Positions 25,959 through 39,717 of a stretch of DNA of 64,000 nt are shown in pieces (positions within the stretch are counted from its first letter, which is position 1; every line of letters starts with the position of its first letter). The notes under the pieces are model-generated. The model had not been told where the DNA came from and did not search any database. It saw nothing but the letters and a program-made list of their open reading frames with translations. Source of the DNA: an uncultured Planctomycetota bacterium (GTDB lineage Bacteria > Planctomycetota > Planctomycetia > Isosphaerales > Isosphaeraceae); the NCBI GenBank assembly GCA_963845755.1, contig CAWJTV010000041.1:672001-736000 (forward strand), given 5' to 3'. The position numbers were made by a program, and so were the translations under genes.

Positions 25959-26762
25959 TCAGGATTGGCAGAATCGGCTCCAGGACCAGACCACCTGACC
26001 GATGATGATTGGGACTCCATCGCCATTGAACTCGACGGGGATCAGCGGATACTCGCGGCCCTCGTGGTTCGGCCGTAGGATGATGTGGCGGCCGTGGACG
26101 TCCAGCCAGCGTATCATCGGCGTTCCATCAGGGCACACCGCCACGATCTGTCCGTGCAGCTTGGCCGGCTGAGTGATGGAACGATCGATGGCCACGATCG
26201 AGCCGGCGGGCAGGATCGGATACATGGAATCATCAGTCAGGCGAGCCCCGATCGTCTCGGCGGGCTTGGGTAACCAGTGGCGATAGGCCAGCACGTGACC
26301 CTCGACCCGAGCGGCGTCCAGGACAGTCCGGGCGATGTCTGAGAGCGGATACAGAGGGACCGCCACGAACTCCGACGCGACATCGCCCGGCAGGTTCTCG
26401 GGGGCGACGATCACCACCTCGCTGGACGAGCGTTCCAGCTTCTCAAGGCCGCGCCGGATCAGCTCGATCGGGGTCAGTTCCGAGAGGAGACGATCGTCGT
26501 GCGGATGCCGGTATCGCGCACCTTCACCATTGAGCAACCAGGTGGGGTTGACGCCCGTCTGCTCGATGAAGCCGAGCAAGACCTCCGCGGGAACGGTGAC
26601 ACCTGTCTCATAGTTGTACCAGGTTCTCGCCGGAAGACCCAGACGACGGGCCAGCTCCGGTCCGCCGTGCTCTCCGAAAATCTCCTGGCGGATTTCTCTC
26701 AGTCAACGTGATAGAGACGCTTTGACGTTAACACGGACTTTCGGTGTCTTCTTGCGAGCCAC
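25959..26762 (-). pseudogene. HTH + S24 peptidase-like (CI/LexA-type) regulator with in-frame TGA at codon 20 (26703-26705)
   Basis: GTG 26762: VARKKTPKVRVNVKASLSR*LREIRQEIFGEHGGPELARRLGLPARTWYNYETG, in frame with ORF 25959..26579 (WLLNGEG, DSMYP, IIGQVVW). Confidence 0.75.
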
Positions 26763-27623: not shown

Positions 27624-27923
27624 TCAAAAGAATCCCAGCTCATCGCGGGCGGCATCAGTCATCTTCTCGGGGGACCACGGCGGGGACATCACCAGGCGGA
27701 CATTGGCCTTGGCGATGCCCGGGACGGACTCCAGGGCTGTCGCGGCACTTCGGAGCATCTCCGGACCGGCCGGGCACGCGGGAGAGGTCAGGGTCATCTC
27801 GACCTCCACCTGATCCTCGTGAGTCTGGATCGAGTAGATCAGTCCCAGGTTGACCACATTGACATTCAACTCGGGATCCTTGACCTTGCGCAGGGCCTCG
27901 ATCAGGGTTTCTTGATCGATCAT
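27624..27923 (-). CDS. sufT: Metal-sulfur cluster assembly factor (DUF59/SufT)
   Basis: KDPELNVNVVNLGLIY, MTLTSPACP, PPWSPEKMT. Confidence 0.9.
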   Translation of the reverse strand: MIDQETLIEALRKVKDPELNVNVVNLGLIYSIQTHEDQVEVEMTLTSPACPAGPEMLRSAATALESVPGIAKANVRLVMSPPWSPEKMTDAARDELGFF

Positions 27924-28022
27924 TGCTTTGTCCTTGGTTCGCGAGCGGACTGAGGAGCCATCTCCGAGGGACTGGAGCCAGGCGACCCTCACGGATAACA
28001 TTGTTGAACAAAAGATCAAAAA

Positions 28023-28334
28023 CTATTGAAGAGCCACGTAGATATCATCGCCGCGCACCTCGGTGGCATGGACAGCCACGGGTTCGATGGCGGGCATGCA
28101 CAGGGGACGGCCGGTCCGCACGTCGAAGCGCGCTCCGTGGCGCGGGCATTGAATCTCGCAGCCCATCAGTTCGCCCTCGGCGAGCGGTCCGCCATCGTGC
28201 GTGCAGACGTCGTCGATCGCGTGAAAGCTGCCGTCGACGTTGAAGACCGCGATGGCGCGGCCGTTGACCTCGACGAGCTTCTTGCCGCCGGAGGGCAATT
28301 CCGAGCGAGTCGCGACCTTTACGAATTCTGGCAT
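28023..28334 (-). CDS. Rieske [2Fe-2S] ferredoxin
   Basis: CTHDGGPL and CPRHGARFD motifs. Confidence 0.92.
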   Translation of the reverse strand: MPEFVKVATRSELPSGGKKLVEVNGRAIAVFNVDGSFHAIDDVCTHDGGPLAEGELMGCEIQCPRHGARFDVRTGRPLCMPAIEPVAVHATEVRGDDIYVALQ

Positions 28335-28411
28335 AATAGGAAGAGTCCTTGCTTCGCGGTCAGTGAGAAGTGGCAAGACAAGATAAATGGTCACGTGCCA
28401 CTACGACGCAA

Positions 28412-28861
28412 CTAACCACGAGCCGCCGGGTTTTCCGCCCGGGTTATCGCGGCACGGGTCACATCACCCTTGACGCGACGAAGGACACCGGACAGCCCCC
28501 GGACTCGGAGCATACCCAGGATCTCCGTCAGGCCACATCGGTCGACCAGATCATTGGGCACGCGCAGGACGTCTTCCACGCTGGCCCCATCGAGCCCCTC
28601 CATCAGTAGCGACACGAACCCGCGCACGGTCGGGGCCTCGATCGGCGCGTCGGCGTGGAGCGAGACCCGCTGGCCGTCGATCTCGACGAACAGATAGACC
28701 GGAGACTGGCATTCCTCGACCCGATGGGCCGCGTCCTTGTGAGCGGCCAATCGATCCGGCAGCGGCGGCAGGCTCTTGGCGAAATCGAGCAAGAGGTCGA
28801 TACGATCCTGTCTGTCGGATTCGCTCAATTCGGTGACGATTTCATCCAACTTCTTGGTCAT
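28412..28861 (-). CDS. sufE: SufE-family sulfur acceptor
   Basis: RVEECQSPVY, EAPTVRGF, LRVRGL. Confidence 0.88.
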   Translation of the reverse strand: MTKKLDEIVTELSESDRQDRIDLLLDFAKSLPPLPDRLAAHKDAAHRVEECQSPVYLFVEIDGQRVSLHADAPIEAPTVRGFVSLLMEGLDGASVEDVLRVPNDLVDRCGLTEILGMLRVRGLSGVLRRVKGDVTRAAITRAENPAARG

Positions 28862-29014
28862 TCGTGGCGCTTGCCTCTTTAGTGATTTGGTCGTGAGTCC
28901 TTGATCATCTCGTGGCTCGACCCGAAGGGGCTCGGAGTGGAGTCGTCCAGGTCCCGGGGCTGAAGCCAGTCCGAGGACACGCGGCGCACATCCAAGACTG
29001 ATGACCGGTGACGA

Positions 29015-29869
29015 CTAGGCGCCCTTGGCGATCGGGGCCCGTACCAGGTTGCCCCACTCGGTCCAGGATCCATCATAGTTCCGGACATGAGGATAGCCCA
29101 GCAGGTAGGTCAGGACGAACCAGGTCAAGCTGGATCGCTCACCGATGCGGCAGTAGGCGACAACATTGTCGCCGGGCTTCAGGCCCACTTCCTGTTCGTA
29201 GATTCCGCGGAGTTCCGCGGCGGACTTGAATGTGCCATCCTCGTTGACCGCGCGGCTCCAGGGGACGTTCTTGGCGCCGGGGATATGGCCGCCGCGGAGC
29301 GCGCCTTCCTGGGGATAATCTTCCATGTGCAGCTTTTCGCCGGTGAATTCCTTGGGGCTGCGGACGTCGATCATGGGGAGCCCGGCCTTGCAGTGGGCCA
29401 GGACCTCGTCGCGGAAGGTCCGGATGCGCTCCTCCTGGCTCCCTCCGACGGTGTAGGAAGCTCGCGGGTAGTTCGGCACCTCGGTGGTGGTGGGCCGCTT
29501 CTGGTCGAGCCAGAGCTTGCGGCCGCCGTTGAGGACCCGGCAGTCGGCGTGTCCGAAGAGTTTGAATGCCCAGAAGGCATAGCACGCCCACCAGTTCGAC
29601 TTGTCACCGTAGAACACGACGGTGGTGTCGCTGGCGATGCCGGCCCTGGAGCACAGGGCGGTGAACTTCTCGGCGTTGATGTAGTCGCGGAGCAACTGGT
29701 CCTGGAGGTCCCCCTGCCAGTCGATCCGGACGGCGCCGGGGATGTGGGACAGGTCGTAGAGCAATATGTCTTCGTCGCTCTCGACGATGCGGACTTTCGG
29801 ATCCTTCAGGTGGTCTTCGACCCAATCGGCCGAGACCAGCACTTCCGGGTGAACGTAGGCTTCTCCCAT
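29015..29869 (-). CDS. Tandem-domain thiosulfate sulfurtransferase (rhodanese, SseA/CysA-type)
   Basis: [15 protein letters not shown] twice, active site [18 protein letters not shown]. Own ATG at 29869. Confidence 0.93.
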
Positions 29870-29919
29870 GGGGTAGACTCCGTGTTGACACGATCGAGTG
29901 AATGCGATTCCAACAGGTT

Positions 29920-31249
29920 TCAGGCCAGCTTCGCCGCGACGGCCTGACGGAGCGTTTCGCGGACCGGCTCGACGGTGATTCGGTCGTAGACGTCGGCGAA
30001 GAAGCCCTCGACGATCAGCCGGACGGCGGTCTCGTGGGGGATGCCGCGGGCGGCGGCGTAGAAGATCATGTCTTCGTCCACGCGGCCGGCGGTGGCGCCG
30101 TGGGTACAGCGGACGTCGTTGGCCTCGATCTCCAGGCCGGGGATCGAGTCGGCCCGGGCGGACTCGGAGAGGACGAGGTTGTCGTTCTTCTGATAGGCGT
30201 CGGTGCGCTGCGCGTCCTTCTCGACACGGATCATCCCCTTCCAGACGACCCGCGACCGGTCCTTGAGCCCCCCCTTGTAGAGCAGGTCGCTGGTGGTGTG
30301 GTGAGAGACATGATCCTGGCGCGTGAAGTAGGCCAGATGCTGGCGACCGGTGGTGAACATCACGCCGTTGACCTGGGCGTCGGCCCCCGGGCCGGCGAGC
30401 ACGACTTCCTGGTTGACCTTGGCCAACCGCGAGCCCAGTCCGCCGACGGTCCACTGGAGCGCGGCATCGCGTCCGACGATCGCCCGTTCCCGGCTGAAGT
30501 GCCAGGTCGCGTCGTCCCAGTTCTGGATGTTGACCACCCGGAGCCGGGCCCCTTGCCAGGAAGACCTCGAGTGCCCCGGCGTGGAATGCCGGCGTCTGAC
30601 CGCCGCCTCGGCCGGCCGACTCTCGGACCAGGGTCGCCTCCGCGCCGTCCTCGAGCACGATCAGGGTGTGACTCAGATCGACGCTCCCCCCCTGCCCCAT
30701 CCCGACCAGGCTGAACAACGGGGCCTCGAGCTTCACTCCCTTGGGCACGTAAAGCAGCGACCCACTCGTCCAGAAAGCCGAGTGCAGAGCGGCGAAGATG
30801 TCGTCGCCTGGGGTGACAGCCTGCGTCAACAGGTACCGATCGAGGATCTCCGGATGATCCTTGACCGCGCGGTCGAGGTCGACGAAGATCGCCCCGCCTA
30901 AATGTGAGGCATCGGGCTCACGAACCAGGGCGCCGTTGATATGAGCAATCCCGGTGGCGTAATGCGAGCTCAACGTCCGCCAGAGCTCGTCGAACGATGC
31001 GCGGGCCTCGGCGCTCGGTTCCTCGGCGGCCGGGGGTGCGAACGCGTCGAGCTTCAGGCCGCGGATATCCGTCCGCCGCCATTCCTCCTCGCGCGCGCTC
31101 GGCCACGGGAACGCCTGGAAGCGCGCGAAGGCGTCCTGGCGACGCTCGACCAGCCACGCGGGCTCGTCGCGCCCCTTCATGAAGCGGTGGAAGGCGTCCT
31201 CGGTGAAGCCGCCGGTGGTGGGAGTGATTGTCCCCGATGCACTACTCAT
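29920..31249 (-). CDS. sufD: Fe-S cluster assembly protein SufD (frameshift near 30551)
   Basis: [53 protein letters not shown]. Confidence 0.92.
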
Positions 31250-31469
31250 GGTGATGGAACTCTTCAAAGACCGAGTCAGACTCTTGGGCCACTCCGGATC
31301 GGTGCCCGCTTTCCGCCTCGCGGATGTCATATTCCCGGAAAGCCTCGTCGGCAATCTGGGCGAGAGTCTCCTCATCCAGACGAGGCCATTCCATTTCGGC
31401 TGTGTGCCACAGCGGCTCGCAGTCAGGTTGTTGATACGAATCTTGACCTTCAGCGGGATCGGTCATCAT
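31242..31469 (-). CDS. Small acidic hypothetical protein (possible orphan antitoxin-like)
   Basis: 75-aa ORF overlapping both neighbours, [18 protein letters not shown]. Confidence 0.5.
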
Positions 31470-31900
31470 GGATTCACCTTCTGGATCGGTTGCTCTAACC
31501 TGGCCGTCTTGATGACCTCGATCAGAAGATTGAAACTGAATGCGACTGCACCGCCCAGGATTGTCGCCAGGATTAATTTCCCGATCTCGAAGCGATTCGA
31601 GCGTAGCTTGTCGAACTCCTTCGTAGTGCTTTTCAACGCCTCGTCGATGCGAGCGAGCCGGTCGTTAGGATCCGATTTATCGAGCCGGTCCTTGAAGTGC
31701 TTCAGGGCCTCTTCGATACGGGCGACCTGAGTATCCAGTTGATGAATCTGACTCTTCACTCCATCCGAGTTCTTCTCGAGTTCGTCTAGGTCGCCTCGGA
31801 TCGCCTCAAGGGCCTTGATTGTCGCGTCCGCACGGACTTGCAAGATCTCGACGGCCTTCTCGAGTTCAATTATCGCGTTCGACTTCGGCGGCAACCTCAA
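31466..31900 (-). CDS. Coiled-coil protein with C-terminal TM helix
   Basis: Heptad-rich (ARIEEALK / ARIDEALK duplication), hydrophobic LILATILGGAVAFSFNLLI. Confidence 0.65.
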   Translation of the reverse strand: MRLPPKSNAIIELEKAVEILQVRADATIKALEAIRGDLDELEKNSDGVKSQIHQLDTQVARIEEALKHFKDRLDKSDPNDRLARIDEALKSTTKEFDKLRSNRFEIGKLILATILGGAVAFSFNLLIEVIKTARLEQPIQKVNP

Positions 31901-32304
31901 TCCCCTTCGAGAGTTTCTACCAGTTCATGGACACGATCCATCTGTTTATGCGAGAGATCTTGAAGGAACTCGCTCCAAGCTTGGAGTAAACGTGTTTTCA
32001 TGAGGTTCTGGTTTCTCAGCTCTAACGGCTGAAAGGTTTCCTCCTTGGTTTCGGAGAACGGATCGGTCAATCTCAGACGGACCATTCGTCTGGGGCCGGA
32101 AGGGCCGGGTACCTCGACTTGGGACCACTCCGCCTGGACGAAACGAGCGCCGCGGGCCCCGACGATTTCGCCAAGGGTCTTCTCGGCACCGGAAATCTCG
32201 GAATCGGAGATTTCTGCGAGGGTTTCCGAGGCGGTTGATACTCGATCGTAAAGATGAGGTTCTTCTCTAGGATCGATTTGGATCTTGTTCTCCATGGGAA
32301 ACAC
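31897..32304 (-). CDS. Hypothetical protein
   Basis: 135-aa ORF, GGAGG RBS near MENK start, 4-nt overlap with the next gene. Confidence 0.6.
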   Translation of the reverse strand: MFPMENKIQIDPREEPHLYDRVSTASETLAEISDSEISGAEKTLGEIVGARGARFVQAEWSQVEVPGPSGPRRMVRLRLTDPFSETKEETFQPLELRNQNLMKTRLLQAWSEFLQDLSHKQMDRVHELVETLEGD

Positions 32305-32405
32305 CTCCGAGTCGTACGCTTATCGTTCGAGGGGCTCACAAAGTTCTCGTCGGGATGGCAGCCGAAAACCTGGTGGTTCGTGAACGCCTCCCGACAAGGG
32401 CCGCC

Positions 32406-33822
32406 TCACCCCACCGAGCCTTCCATCTGGAGCTGGATGAGCTTGTTCATCTCGACGGCGTATTCCATGGGCAGCTCCCTGACCAGGGGCTCGATGAACC
32501 CGCTGACGATCAAGGTCGAGGCCTCGGCCTCGGAAAGACCGCGGCTCCTGAGGTAGAAGAGCTGCTCCTCGCCGATCTTGGAGACGCTGGCCTCGTGGCC
32601 GACCTTGACGTCGTCCTCGTCGATCTCGATATAAGGATACGTGTCGGACCGACTCCGGTCGTCGAGGATCAAGGCATCGCAGACGACGTTGGACTTGGAG
32701 CCCTTGGCGCCGTCGGCGATCTTGAGGAGGCCGCGGTAGCTGGCCCGACCGCCGTTCTTGCTGATGCTCTTGGAGATAATCCGCGAGCTGGTGTAGGGCG
32801 CGCCGTGGACGACCTTGCCGCCGGCGTCCTGATGCTGTCCCTTGCCGGCGAACGCGATCGAGAGGATCTCGCCCCGCGCCCCCTTGCCCAGCATGTAGAC
32901 CGCGGGGTACTTCATGGTCAGCTTGCTGCCCAGATTGCCGTTGACCCATTCCATCAACGCATCCTCGTAGGCCACGGCCCGTTTGGTCACGAGGTTGTAG
33001 ATATTATTCGCCCAGTTCTGGATCGTGGTGTACCGGCAACGGCCATGCTTCTTGACGACGATCTCGACCACGGCCGAGTGCAGGCTCTCGCTGGTGTAGA
33101 TAGGCGCCGTGCAGCCCTCGACGTAATGGACCTGCGCCCCCTCCTCGACGATGATCAGCGTCCGCTCGAACTGGCCCATGTTCTCGGCGTTGATCCGGAA
33201 ATACGCCTGGAGGGGGATATCCACCTTGACGCCGGCCGGGATGTAGACGAACGACCCACCGCTCCAGACCGCCGAGTTGAGCGCGGCGAACTTGTTGTCC
33301 TGCATCGGGATGATCGTGCCGAAGTACTGCTTCACCAGGTCGGGGTGCTCGCGCACCGCCGTGTCGGTATCGACGAAGAGCACCCCCTTCTTCTGCAGGT
33401 CTTCGCGCAGACTGATGATAGACGACTTCCGACTCATACTGGGCGCCGACTCCGGCGAGGAACTTGCGCTCGGCCTCGGGGATGCCCAGCTTCTCGAACG
33501 TGTTCTTGATCTCGGCCGGGACGTCGTCCCAACTCTTCCCCTGGCGGTCGGCGGCCTTCATGTAATAGTGGATGTCGTCGAAGTTCAAGGGCGACAGGTC
33601 CCCTCCCCACTGGGGGGTCGGCTTCTGCCGGAAGACCTCCAGTGCCTTGAGGCGGTAGTCGCGCATCCACTGGGGCTCGTTCTTCATCTCCGAGATCTCG
33701 CAGACGATCTCGCGCGTCAGTCCCTTGCCGCTCTTGAACGCGTAGTTCTCTTCGGAGTCATGGAACCCGTACTTGTAGTCGTCCTTGATCCCCGCAACCT
33801 GGAGGTTCAAATCGGTCGCCAT
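32406..33822 (-). CDS. sufB: Fe-S cluster assembly protein SufB (frameshift near 33417)
   Basis: [65 protein letters not shown]. Confidence 0.96.
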
Positions 33823-33887
33823 CGTGGATCATCCTTCCTTTGCCTGGGTCTCATTGTGCGGTGACGGTGTCGTGTTGGTCTGGACGT

Positions 33888-34730
33888 TCAACGGGCGGCC
33901 GGGAGCGGCTGGTTTTTCTGCGGCTGCGCGGCCTCCAACTCATCCTCATCCTTGGCCGCCTCGGGGTGTTTCTCGCGGACCCAGTCGTAGCCCTGATCTT
34001 CGAGCCGCTTGACCAGCTCGGAGCCGCCGTCCTCGACGATCCGGCCACCGAAGAGGATATGGACGAACTGGGGCTTGATGTAGTTGAGGATCCGCTCGTA
34101 GTGGGTGATGACCAGCACGCCGGTGCCGTGCCGCGCCGCGACCCGATTGACTCCCTCGGAGACGATGCGGACCGCGTCGATATCCAGGCCGCTGTCGGTC
34201 TCGTCGAGGATGGCGAAGGCCGGGCGGAGCATGGCCATCTGGAGGATCTCGGCCCGTTTCTTCTCGCCGCCGGAGAATCCTTCGTTGAGGTAACGCCGGG
34301 CGAATTCCTGGTCGACGCCCAGCTCGTCCATCTGTTCGCGCATCTCCTTGCGGAAGTCGCGCATGGGGATCAGGTCCTCGCCCTCTTTGCGATGGGGGTT
34401 GCGGACGTTCGTCACGGCATGACGGAGGAAATTGGCCACCGATACGCCAGGGATCGAGGTCGGATACTGGAAGGCCAGGAACAGCCCAGCCTTGGCCCGC
34501 TCATCAGCCTCCATGGCCAGGAGGTCCTGGCCGTCGAGTGTGATTGAGCCCTCGGTCACCTCGTAGCGAGGGTGCCCTGCCAGGGCATAGCTCAAGGTGC
34601 TCTTCCCCGAGCCATTGGGCCCCATCAGGGCGTGCACTTCTCCCTGCCGGAGGGTGAGATCGACTCCGCGAAGGATCTCCTTGCCGTCGATCGCCACATG
34701 CAGGTTCTGGATGGAAAGGACCTTGCTCAT
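33888..34730 (-). CDS. sufC: Fe-S cluster assembly ATPase SufC
   Basis: GPNGSGKST, FLAFQYP, NEGFSGGEKKR, LDETDSGLDID, ITHY. Confidence 0.96.
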   Translation of the reverse strand: MSKVLSIQNLHVAIDGKEILRGVDLTLRQGEVHALMGPNGSGKSTLSYALAGHPRYEVTEGSITLDGQDLLAMEADERAKAGLFLAFQYPTSIPGVSVANFLRHAVTNVRNPHRKEGEDLIPMRDFRKEMREQMDELGVDQEFARRYLNEGFSGGEKKRAEILQMAMLRPAFAILDETDSGLDIDAVRIVSEGVNRVAARHGTGVLVITHYERILNYIKPQFVHILFGGRIVEDGGSELVKRLEDQGYDWVREKHPEAAKDEDELEAAQPQKNQPLPAAR

Positions 34731-34749
34731 CAACGCCTCTCGTCGTTCG

Positions 34750-35409
34750 TCATTGGTCATTGGTCATGGTTGGCTCGGGAGTCGGAGAGGGGACCGGCTT
34801 GACCTGGAAGTCGCAGAAGCGATCGCCGTCGAGCCGGCACTGACTGAGTCGCAACCCCCGCCCCAGCACCTTTTCGAACATCTTGCGTTCCAGGGCACAG
34901 ATGGCGCGGTCGGCCTCGGCGAGCTCGTAGTACGGGCAGGAATGCTGGCGGAGGATCGGGAACGCCCCGCCTTCCCGGGCCACCTCGACCTCGACACCAC
35001 GGTCGTGCAGCAGGTTGGTGAGCTGGACCAGCCGGCCTTCCCACTCCTGACCGCTCACCTGGCACCGATACACCTCGGCCAGCCGCTCGGTGATCCGCGT
35101 GAATAGGAGCCGCCTCAGCTTGCGGTCGGCCACCGTGCTCATCATCTCTTCCCAGAGGACAAAGGCAAGCTCCGCGTAATTCTGGCCCAGCCTCTTCTGC
35201 GCCTCGACGCTCGCCCGGTAGGTATGCCGGGGACGCCCGCGCCCGCCGTGCTCGATCCGACGCTCGACCAGTCCGGAGCCGAGTAGCCGCGCCAGCCGGT
35301 TGCGGATCGCCGTCCCGGTCACGCCCAGGTCCGTGCCCATCTCCGCCACCGTCATCGGCCCCCGACGACGGATCAAATCCAGCAACTCGCGATCCGACGA
35401 CTCGGTCAT
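34750..35409 (-). CDS. SufR-like HTH transcriptional regulator with C-terminal Cys cluster
   Basis: HTH LGVTGTAIRNRLARL, GRGRP, CPY...C..E...C....DRFC. First gene of the suf operon. Confidence 0.85.
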   Translation of the reverse strand: MTESSDRELLDLIRRRGPMTVAEMGTDLGVTGTAIRNRLARLLGSGLVERRIEHGGRGRPRHTYRASVEAQKRLGQNYAELAFVLWEEMMSTVADRKLRRLLFTRITERLAEVYRCQVSGQEWEGRLVQLTNLLHDRGVEVEVAREGGAFPILRQHSCPYYELAEADRAICALERKMFEKVLGRGLRLSQCRLDGDRFCDFQVKPVPSPTPEPTMTNDQ

Positions 35410-35524
35410 CGAAGCTACTCCGTCGCGGTAAAGCCTTTGGCTCGCCTCACTCGAACCTCTCGATCCCAGGAATTGTAAGGGTTCCCCATCCGGTCGTCCA
35501 TGAGACGGAGCCCGCTTTTTCGCC

Positions 35525-35550
35525 TTTTTCGCAAGATTAATTGCGAAAAA
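35525..35550. promoter_or_regulatory. Perfect inverted repeat upstream of the suf operon (candidate SufR operator)
   Basis: TTTTTCGCAA-GATTAA-TTGCGAAAAA, about 115 bp upstream of the regulator ATG. Confidence 0.6.
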
Positions 35551-37896: not shown

Positions 37897-38219
37897 GGCC
37901 ATGGGGTGAACAGAAATCTCGTTGAGACATTATTTTTTAATTTATCGATTCAAAATACTATTAATGAAACTGTATGTCTATGTCGCAGGGAGGGGTGACT
38001 TCGTTTCGCGAGGCTCGGCGTTCCATTCGAGAGCCACCGTTGGTGGGACGTTCACCGGCAGCCGGCGAGCCATCGATAGGGTGGGGGGATCGGCAAGACG
38101 GTAGAATGAGTTCAAGGTCAGGATTCTGGGTCCCTTGTTTCGCCGGCCCGAGTTCAGGGAAGGGAGCGGAAACGAGAGGATCCCCGCGCAAGACAACCGT
38201 TGCGAGGGCAAGAGCACAC

Positions 38220-39656
38220 ATGGTCAACCCCGATGTCTACGACAATCCCCTGATCGGCCGATACGCCAGTCCGCCGATGACCCATCTGTGGTCGCCTCAG
38301 GCGAAGTTCTCGACATGGCGGCGGCTCTGGGTCGCGCTGGCCGAGGCCCAGCGCGACCTCGGGTTGACGATCACCGAGGAACAGATCGCGGCTCTGAGAT
38401 CCCAGGTCGATACCATCGACTTCGAGGCAGCCGAGGGGTACGAGCGGCGCTTCCGGCACGATGTCATGGCGCACATCCACGCCCTGGGCGATGCCGCGCC
38501 CGCGGCGCGACCGATCATCCATCTGGGGGCGACGAGCTGTTACGTCACCGATAATGCCGACCTGATCCTGATGCGCGCGGCCCTCCAACTCATCCGCGAA
38601 AAGACGGTTGCTGCGATCGACGCCCTGGCCCGATTCGCCGAGAGTCACAAAAGCTTGCCTTGCCTGGGTTACACCCACTTCCAACCCGCGCAACTGGTGA
38701 CGGTCGGCAAGCGCGCGACGCTCTGGTGCTACGAGTTGATCCTCGACCTGTCGGAAATCGAGCGGCGGATCGCGGAATTGAAGTTCCTGGGCGTCAAGGG
38801 GACAACGGGCACTCAGGCGAGTTTCCTGGAGCTTTTCGACGGAGACGACGCCAGGGTTGACGCCCTGGATCAGCAGGTGGCCGCGGCGTTCGGCTTCGAG
38901 CGGACCTATCCGGTCTCCGGCCAGACGTACTCGCGCGAAGTTCGACGCGCAGGTGCTGGCCGCGCTGGCGGGGATCGCCGAGAGCGCCCACCGGTTCGGC
39001 ACCGACTTGAGGCTGCTGGCCCACGAGCGCGAGGTCGAGGAACCATTCGAGGCTCAGCAGATCGGCTCCTCGGCCATGGCTTACAAGCGCAACCCCATGC
39101 GAGCGGAGCGGATGTGCGCGCTCAGCCGATTCGCGATGGCCTTGCCGGCGGCCGCCGGTCACACGGCGGCGACCCAGTGGCTGGAACGCACGCTCGACGA
39201 TAGTGCGGTCCGCCGCCTGACCGTGCCCCAGGCCTTCCTGGCCATCGACGCGGTCCTGAACCTGTATCTCAACGTCGTGCCGGGCCTGGTCGTCCATCCC
39301 GCGGTGATTTCGCGCCACGTCGCCGAGCAACTCCCGTTCATGGCGACCGAGAACCTGCTCATGGCGGCGGTGCAGGCTGGCGGCGATCGCCAGGATTTGC
39401 ACGAGAGGATCCGCGTTCATGCCCTGGCGGCCGCGGACCGATTGAAGGAGGGGGCCGCCGACAATGACCTGCTCAACAGGATCCGCAACGACCCGACTTT
39501 CCCGCCGCTCGATTTCGAGGGAGTTCTCGACCCGCGCCGCTATATCGGCCGATCGGTCCGCCAGGTCGAGGAGTTCCTCGGCGCGAGGTCGAGCCGATCC
39601 GCCGGCGCTATCCCGACCGGCCTGTCGAGGACCCGAATTCCCTGGTGCGCGTCTGA
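38220..39656 (+). CDS. purB: Adenylosuccinate lyase (frameshifts near 38940 and 39581)
   Basis: [48 protein letters not shown]. Confidence 0.95.
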
Positions 39657-39662
39657 CCCTCT

Positions 39663-39717
39663 TGAAGGATGAAGGATGAAGGTTGAGTCAGAAAAGACGG
39701 GTCGAATTCATCCTTCA
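39663..39717. repeat. Inverted heptamer repeats (TGAAGGA)n / TTCATCCTTCA between convergent purB and rpsU
   Basis: 3 units at 39663-39683 and a complementary arm at 39707-39717. Confidence 0.65.

Follow-up and report, generated by a model that had tools for sequence, protein, structure and literature searches.

A stretch of 64,000 nucleotides (the window) from an uncultured bacterium of the Isosphaeraceae (Planctomycetota; GenBank assembly GCA_963845755.1, contig CAWJTV010000041.1, positions 672,001 to 736,000) carries, from 35409 to 27624 on its minus strand, a SUF operon for iron-sulfur (Fe-S) cluster assembly in which a tandem rhodanese gene is followed by sufE. The source genome is 87.9% complete. 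The genes lie in the order given in an earlier note on this DNA, all on the minus strand: a sufR-like gene, sufC, sufB, three cargo open reading frames (ORFs), sufD, the rhodanese, sufE, a Rieske ferredoxin and sufT; as that note stated, neither sufS nor sufU is found between them. The note read the rhodanese-SufE pair as a replacement of the cysteine desulfurase SufS, possibly fed by thiosulfate and assisted by the Rieske protein as electron carrier. Its placing of the pair in the SUF operon is upheld, for the whole family, by the present analysis, which does not bear out the replacement of sufS, the thiosulfate donor or the Rieske carrier.

The suf operon of the window

The features of the locus are the following.

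35526..35549, no strand: palindromic operator TTTTCGCAA-N6-TTGCGAAAA, probable SufR box, a palindrome conserved in the family
35472..35500, minus strand: promoter-like TGGACG-N17-TACAAT, found by consensus scan and conserved in the family alignment
34750..35409, minus strand: SufR-like helix-turn-helix (HTH) regulator, with HTH matches, a CX12C motif and two further cysteines
33888..34730, minus strand: sufC ATPase, TIGR01978 at 354 bits, over the cut-off
32406..33822, minus strand: sufB scaffold, TIGR01980 at 550 bits, over the cut-off; split near 33415
31242..32295, minus strand: three cargo ORFs of low guanine-cytosine (GC) content, no family over cut-off
29920..31249, minus strand: sufD, PF19295 and PF01458; split near 30545
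29015..29869, minus strand: SseA-type tandem rhodanese of 284 amino acids, matching PDB entries 1UAR (4.5e-125) and 3HZU (3.4e-113), Cys240 in CRIGERS
28412..28861, minus strand: sufE, PF02657 at 100 bits, with Cys51 and Arg119
28023..28334, minus strand: Rieske [2Fe-2S] ferredoxin, PF00355
27624..27923, minus strand: sufT (DUF59), PF01883, likely start at 27923

The rhodanese does contain the YCRIGERSS motif reported earlier, with the active-site Cys240; of its two structural matches, 1UAR is a Thermus structure and 3HZU is M. tuberculosis SseA. Residues C240, R241, E244, R245, S246 and Y185 are invariant in 47 homologues, and E33, K90 and H181 are at least 90% conserved. The CRXGX[R/T] site of SseA-type thiosulfate sulfurtransferases (TST) is present as CRIGER, invariant in the same 47 sequences, and the gating loop (residues 185-201 in Mycobacterium tuberculosis) aligns without gaps to 3HZU, with E33, K90, H181, Y185, R241 and E244 conserved. 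In SufE, C51 and R119 are invariant in 46 sequences; the structural model has a predicted local distance difference test (pLDDT) value of 95, and its nearest structures are 1WLO and E. coli SufE, 1MZG. The cysteine loop reads E-C-Q-S-P, which conforms to the pattern E-C-[QM]-[ST]-P expected of the SufE adjacent to such a rhodanese; on the SufE tree the protein groups with rhodanese-linked SufEs, apart from the SufS-linked ones that carry G-C-Q-S. SufB, aligned to 5AWF, keeps the equivalents of E. coli Y224/R226/N228, C254, C405, E477 and E481, and the acceptor C254, C405 and the 224-228 strand are invariant in 38 sequences. A complex prediction for a SufB fragment with SufE scored 0.00, which is no answer and weighs neither way.

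At least 14 of the 18 consensus positions of the operator are matched in 19 of 21 family upstream regions; the site is the sole strong one in the source genome (score 41, next 21.7), and the pattern has one match in the window and none in 100 shuffles. The SufR-like regulator, which reaches 63 bits against TIGR02702, under the cut-off of 179, probably binds the palindrome at 35526-35549. A SufR regulon extending beyond the operon was considered and rejected, the next-best site (contig C9) sitting among unrelated genes. The earlier note had regarded a SufR-co-regulated sufS elsewhere as contrary evidence; none appeared, and no SufR box lies upstream of any desulfurase gene of the source genome. 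Two RNA contigs of relatives span the sufD-rhodanese and the rhodanese-sufE junctions, by which a single transcript is not shown, and the stretch from sufD to sufT revealed no terminator-like site.

Two genes of the operon are broken in this assembly. Compared with relatives, in which sufB, sufC and sufD are intact, sufB has one extra base near 33415 (5/5 alignments) and sufD is two bases short near 30545 in 3/5 alignments, with a single 2-base gap in the other two. Since the extra sufB base is absent from soil contigs and other genes of the same assembly are split likewise, both frameshifts are probably assembly errors. The C-terminal piece of sufD scores 210 bits with TIGR01981 against a cut-off of 222, and sufT scores 101 bits with TIGR02945, below the cut-off. 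A 786-amino-acid ORF that would join SufD to the rhodanese was dismissed as a frameshift artefact, the two genes being separate in relatives. An adenylosuccinate lyase-like gene, recognized by eye at 37974-39672 on the plus strand, is also divided between reading frames, which again points to indel errors. In many family operons sufT is followed by a peptidase S24-like gene (40-90% identity); in the window this gene is at 25959-26579 (minus strand), where its N-terminus may have been severed by a frameshift. The sequencing runs contained less than 10% of the stretch; therefore no habitat is claimed.

The three cargo ORFs have a GC content of 53-57%, against 61-68% in the suf genes, and lie outside the system, in a variable slot between sufB and sufD whose gene content differs across the 17 loci inspected. 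By eye, this cargo hotspot (31242-32295; loci L017-L175) holds toxin-antitoxin-like, HEPN-like and Uma2-like ORFs, and relatives of the window's cargo ORFs c1 and c2 recur in a few genomes.

Distribution of the pair and of SufS

The order sufD-rhodanese-sufE, whose conservation the earlier note had left to be surveyed, was followed through 74 Isosphaeraceae genomes at least 85% complete, the source genome included. The rhodanese orthologue and sufD were each found in 71 of them, both being missed in the same three genomes; the rhodanese lies no more than 504 bases after sufD in 71/71 and sufE comes next in 69/71, the two exceptions being one pair at a contig edge and one with sufE on another contig. 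Throughout the family, the rhodanese and SufE are part of the SUF operon. Of the 27 family operons that were mapped, 9 lack the Rieske gene, and four of these 9 come from SufS-less genomes; the gene also occurs in rhodanese-free operons as a class-wide companion. On these two grounds the ferredoxin is a dispensable companion and stands outside any alternative route of sulfur delivery, contrary to the role first given to it.

SufS was detected in 40 of the 74 genomes, with E-values that are clearly bimodal (E<1e-100 versus E>=1e-53). Among the 71 genomes with sufD and the rhodanese, SufS is present in 39 and was not found in 32, including G053, which has a cysteine desulfurase of the family 2A encapsulin cargo type, broken by a frameshift (L169:3053-5173). 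The SufS-less genomes include assemblies in 2-7 contigs that are 95-99% complete (G060, G098, G099, G087), and whole genera appear without SufS (g16, 5/5; g60, 3/3). A 40% SufS match in G077 looked on inspection like a TIGR01976-type protein. The nine family SufS loci that were mapped are unlinked to the operon, seven being sufS-sufU and two SufS-SufE fusions; one operon (G014) goes from sufD to sufT without the pair, and its genome carries the SufS-SufE fusion. The seven SufS proteins accompanied by SufU form one clade (support 99), and a 25-row tree of poor resolution shows four or more changes in the presence of SufS, which together fit repeated loss, the direction of change being unproven.

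The SufS-SufE fusion (L050:5005-6663, L055:4909-6588) is patchy, occurring in 12 family genomes with open frames of about 600-660 amino acids in most; it groups with SufS of Rhodothermales and Spirochaetia and not with the family's SufS-SufU, and was possibly acquired sideways. Stand-alone IscU/SufU-like genes (L057-L061; G001, G008) recur beside glycosyltransferase-like and tetratricopeptide repeat-like genes with no desulfurase nearby and are situated away from any sufS.

The survey of the class comprised 171 genomes, 170 at 95% completeness or more plus the source genome, with at most ten SufS candidates scored per genome. SufD is found in 124 of them, and the rhodanese orthologue in 46 of those 124. 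SufS is missing from 19 of the 46 genomes with SufD and rhodanese, as against none of the 78 with SufD but no rhodanese, so that its absence among SufD-bearing genomes was seen only where the rhodanese is present (Fisher p=3.6e-10, a value overstated because kin genomes, counted as independent, are not). Two of the 19 (G182, G185) belong to other families and have a stand-alone rhodanese-sufE pair; the other 17 are among the 41 family genomes of this sample (40 at 95% or more plus the source genome), compared with 0/21 and 0/42 in two other families. Two further families of the class, f5 and f15, have SufD in 0/38 and 0/4 genomes; three f5 genomes that were checked have IscU-type matches, and the class thus mixes users of SUF and of ISC or MIS systems.

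Among 13 outgroup operons that were mapped, 11 have the order sufR-C-B-D-Rieske-sufT and contain no sufS; G110 and G173 have sufS within about 2 kb of sufD. As the outgroup operons are mostly without sufS, the pair entered an operon that usually already lacked it. The pair is an insert and not a positional replacement of sufS, and to say that it stands in place of the desulfurase is also at odds with the 39 of 71 family genomes that keep SufS and with two operons of other lineages that hold both.

To look beyond the class, the survey took the best 80 of the genome loci, at least 595 in number, that hold a relative of the rhodanese. A sufE gene lies near the rhodanese in 59 of these 80, in several phyla, and the rhodanese comes right after sufD in three (L077, L078, L093). 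The operons L077 (Anaerolineales) and L093 (Phycisphaeraceae) combine a rhodanese after sufD with sufS-sufU; L078, labelled alphaproteobacterial, is not an independent case because the SufB, rhodanese and SufE that it encodes are near-identical to the proteins of the family genome G016, and it is a probable family member under another label. Among 80 metagenome loci fetched by the SufE motif, 60 hold such a SufE and 34 of these also the rhodanese, with sufB or sufD beside SufE in 0/60, many contigs being short. Two natural SufE-SufT fusions (P0005, P0006) tie the rhodanese-linked SufE type to Fe-S maturation; L175:7704-8510 (G049) is such an in-frame fusion within a suf operon. Supposed SufE-Rieske and rhodanese-SufE fusions (P0001, P0003, P0004, P0010) were discarded as single sequences with out-of-frame-looking middles, as was the Limnocylindria genome G221 as a SufS-less case, G224-G226 carrying sufS-sufU. 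In L120 and L154 (Thermomicrobium, Spirochaetia) a SufU-like gene takes the place of sufE after this rhodanese; in Verrucomicrobiota (L082, L083, L086, L090, L143) the rhodanese precedes a very divergent SufE-like gene of 27-31% identity with a different cysteine loop.

Desulfurases and the source of sulfur for SufE

The genome search proposed in the earlier note, for sufS, iscS and csdA, did not find SufS in the source genome: no match to TIGR01979 passes the cut-off (best 222.7 bits versus 475, in a genome 87.9% complete), and tblastn gave no SufS fragment above 36% identity. SufE is present in one copy, and no PF01592 match marks a SufU or IscU. Desulfurases of other types do occur elsewhere in the genome, namely three class I enzymes (IscS/NifS/DndA-like), one TIGR01977 protein and one TIGR01976 protein. 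One class I gene adjoins an iscA-like gene; the TIGR01977 gene adjoins thiF/moaD-like genes, a context that suggests a sulfur-carrier role outside SUF. By eye, the genes upstream of it (C39:152011-156000) are threonine synthase-, MoaD- and ThiF-like. The full desulfurase search was also run on five near-complete SufS-less genomes, G182 and G185 from other families and three of the family; neither SufS nor PF01592 was found in any of the five, and thus no scaffold other than SufBCD was found in them. No desulfurase-free genome was encountered, all those checked having class I enzymes.

We tentatively favour, at a little under even confidence, a reading in which the SUF operon that is standard in the Isosphaeraceae has as its sulfur-entry arm a recruited SseA-type rhodanese with its SufE, supplied from a cysteine-derived donor. 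A widespread rhodanese-SufE module would have been recruited after sufD; Cys240 of the rhodanese would take up sulfane sulfur and pass it to Cys51 of the dedicated SufE, and SufE would deliver it to the C254-equivalent of SufB. Such an arm could have made the group II pair SufS-SufU dispensable, so that it was lost several times. The rhodanese would most likely be charged with cysteine-derived sulfur, whether from a class I desulfurase elsewhere or from low-molecular-weight persulfides; thiosulfate may contribute on the side. The chain from donor to C240, to C51 and to SufB is assembled by analogy from separate precedents: M. tuberculosis SseA (Rv3283) binds Rv3284 in a 1:1 ratio at about 3 uM, and SufE raises its activity 4-fold (PMC12375888); in E. 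coli C51 of SufE hands sulfur to C254 of SufB (10.64898/2026.05.18.725997); and transfer from desulfurase to rhodanese is known for IscS-RhdA and ABA3-STR18 (PMC8931425, PMC8614886). That these steps are linked in the Isosphaeraceae, that SufE passes sulfur to SufB there, and the identity of the donor are predictions. The stricter version, in which SufE must be loaded by the rhodanese rather than by a group II desulfurase and the rhodanese can draw also on inorganic sulfane (thiosulfate, polysulfide), seems to us somewhat unlikely.

Several points weigh against the reading that we favour. Every classified SufS-less genome has class II-like TIGR01977 and class I desulfurases, which might bypass the rhodanese and load SufE or SufB themselves; one genome counted as SufS-less, G053, has the broken SufS-like encapsulin cargo desulfurase mentioned above; and an unlinked SufS persists in 39 of the 71 family genomes. 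The contrast in the class survey rests on few independent lineages and a handful of events, and most of the genomes surveyed are incomplete assemblies. Outside these lineages the pair is usually stand-alone, rarely beside sufB or sufD (3/80 genome loci, 0/60 metagenome loci), and so has a SUF-independent job. The SufB residues where E. coli SufE docks are conserved globally and do not discriminate. Finally, the authors of the M. tuberculosis study argue against an Fe-S role for Rv3284 (PMC12375888).

One alternative keeps SufE as the carrier for SufBCD and has it loaded directly by the TIGR01977 or a class I desulfurase, with the rhodanese as an accessory that strips, buffers or repairs the SufE persulfide under oxidative stress. 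Rhodanese chemistry is reversible, TIGR01977 proteins with an RxGxHCA motif are found in G000 (the source genome), G060, G098, G099, G182 and G185 (the last below cut-off), and L077 and L093 show that a rhodanese and sufS-sufU can share an operon; however, matches in the TIGR01977/TIGR01976 range are class-wide and also present in SUF-less genomes, whereas loss of SufS was seen only with the rhodanese, SufE groups with rhodanese-linked and not SufS-linked SufEs, and the operator precedes no desulfurase gene of the source genome. We consider direct loading unlikely. A still lower probability is given to a passenger role, in which the pair would be a co-regulated module for oxidative stress or thiol homeostasis, brought into the operon in a single event and uninvolved in cluster assembly. 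SufBCD would then receive its sulfur directly from sulfide or a class I desulfurase, and the association of the pair with SufS loss would be a coincidence of lineage. The mostly stand-alone occurrence of the pair across phyla, the single insertion event that would explain 71/71 and the tolerance of the operon for unrelated cargo between sufB and sufD agree with such a passenger; but the cargo varies by genome while the pair is retained, SufE-SufT fusions exist, the pair also occurs, unlinked, in genomes from two other families with SUF and no SufS, and work on E. coli reports no direct transfer from SufS to SufBCD (10.64898/2026.05.18.725997).

Thiosulfate, or another inorganic sulfane donor, as the main physiological source, with clusters built without a pyridoxal phosphate-dependent desulfurase, would suit the TST-type CRXGXR motif, the sulfate/thiosulfate-binding protein present in 5/5 genomes and the rebuilding of Fe-S proteins in vitro by rhodanese and thiosulfate that is described in review passages. 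Against it, turnover of the M. tuberculosis homologue is substoichiometric and the authors of that study doubt that thiosulfate is the real substrate (PMC12375888), no PF04143 (YeeE/TsuA) transporter was found in 5/5 genomes, and class I desulfurases are present in all genomes checked; the donor named in the earlier note is therefore doubtful, and we rate it as very unlikely to be the main one. Least credible, to the point of being nearly negligible, is that SufS is missing merely from incomplete or error-prone assemblies. The source genome is only 88% complete, with many frameshifts, and SufS, missing from G221, was present in a larger genome close to it; yet SufS is absent from 17/41 family genomes versus 0/21 and 0/42 in two other families, from all sampled members of genera g16 and g60, and, above 36% identity, from the tblastn search of the source genome.

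Relation to known systems

The layout is that of a real, conserved SUF system which keeps scaffold and carrier and fails in the SufS component, and it is neither SMS nor ISC/MIS. In the source genome the SufBCD scaffold and a SufE carrier with its Cys and Arg are present, and a group II SufS was not found. As in E. coli, SufBCD has the C254 site, the 220s strand and the acidic C-terminal helix, and SufE has the same fold with C51 and R119; differently from E. coli, group II SufS was found neither in the operon nor in the genome, a rhodanese lies beside sufE, SufE belongs to the E-C-Q-S-P subfamily, far under the NCBIfam SufE/CsdE cut-offs, the operon has no sufA, and control is SufR-like. Review passages describe SUF as needing SufS together with SufE or SufU. 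With SMS (SmsBC) the system shares a SufB/C-type scaffold and the lack of a dedicated desulfurase (PMC13066941), and differs by its distinct SufB and SufD, the persulfide carrier SufE and the other desulfurases of the genomes; indeed, the SmsB model NF052511 gives 223 against 650, while TIGR01980 is over cut-off and SufD and SufE are present. ISC and MIS combine IscU or MisU with IscS, and the PF01592 domain is missing from the source genome and from 5/5 near-complete SufS-less genomes. A 2022 phylogenomic survey reportedly defined SMS and MIS and may already tabulate SufS-less SUF genomes. No description of a rhodanese-SufE pair in a suf operon, or of a link with SufS loss, was found in the literature searched, which covered few subscription papers.

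The closest relative of the pair is SseA/Rv3284 of M. tuberculosis, with the same rhodanese subfamily (3.4e-113 to 3HZU), gating loop, CRIGERS motif and rhodanese-sufE order. There the pair is presented as a redox or detoxification system found in mycobacteria alone, Fe-S assembly being the task of SufS-SufU (PMC12375888); in the Isosphaeraceae it is placed within the suf operon, and often the genome contains neither SufS nor SufU. The occurrence of sufE by the rhodanese in 59 of the best 80 loci shows that the SseA-SufE pair is not unique to mycobacteria, and a possible physiological role for it emerges. The relays IscS-RhdA and ABA3-STR18 and the CD-Rhd fusion are precedents for a rhodanese charged from cysteine, none of them being shown, in the passages of these papers that describe them, to end on SufE or on a SUF scaffold (PMC8931425, PMC8614886).

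According to review passages, rhodaneses have been proposed as sulfur donors for Fe-S clusters for decades, mostly from in vitro work. The Isosphaeraceae, where the sole scaffold found is SufBCD, the sole carrier the rhodanese-partnered SufE, and SufS is often missing, suggest a possible second way of feeding sulfur into SUF and allow the donor question to be tested by plain genetics. If the stricter version is true, with the rhodanese as obligatory loader of SufE, rhodaneses would have the part in de novo Fe-S assembly in vivo of which they have long been suspected, and the stand-alone SseA-SufE pairs of many phyla would be a second sulfur inlet to SUF.

Deinococcus radiodurans, a control genome of the profile panels, gave matches for SufBD and SufE, with no TIGR01979 match at E<=1e-60 and no SufU match. 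COG1104 is the class I desulfurase family. The 'SufS' of this organism is listed in COG1104 as DR_0215, and its SufE as DR_0216 (PMC6300522 supplement); DR0217 is listed as a thiosulfate sulfurtransferase (PMC8533742). Like the source genome, D. radiodurans has SufBCD and SufE, no SufU, and a sulfurtransferase (DR_0217) whose tag is next to that of sufE (DR_0216); differently from the source genome, DR_0215, DR_0216 and DR_0217 are far from sufB (DR_2106) by locus tags. Its SUF may also be SufS-less, which may make it a second, tractable case, and, if the stricter version is true, the annotated 'SufSE' of Deinococcus would be a three-protein relay.

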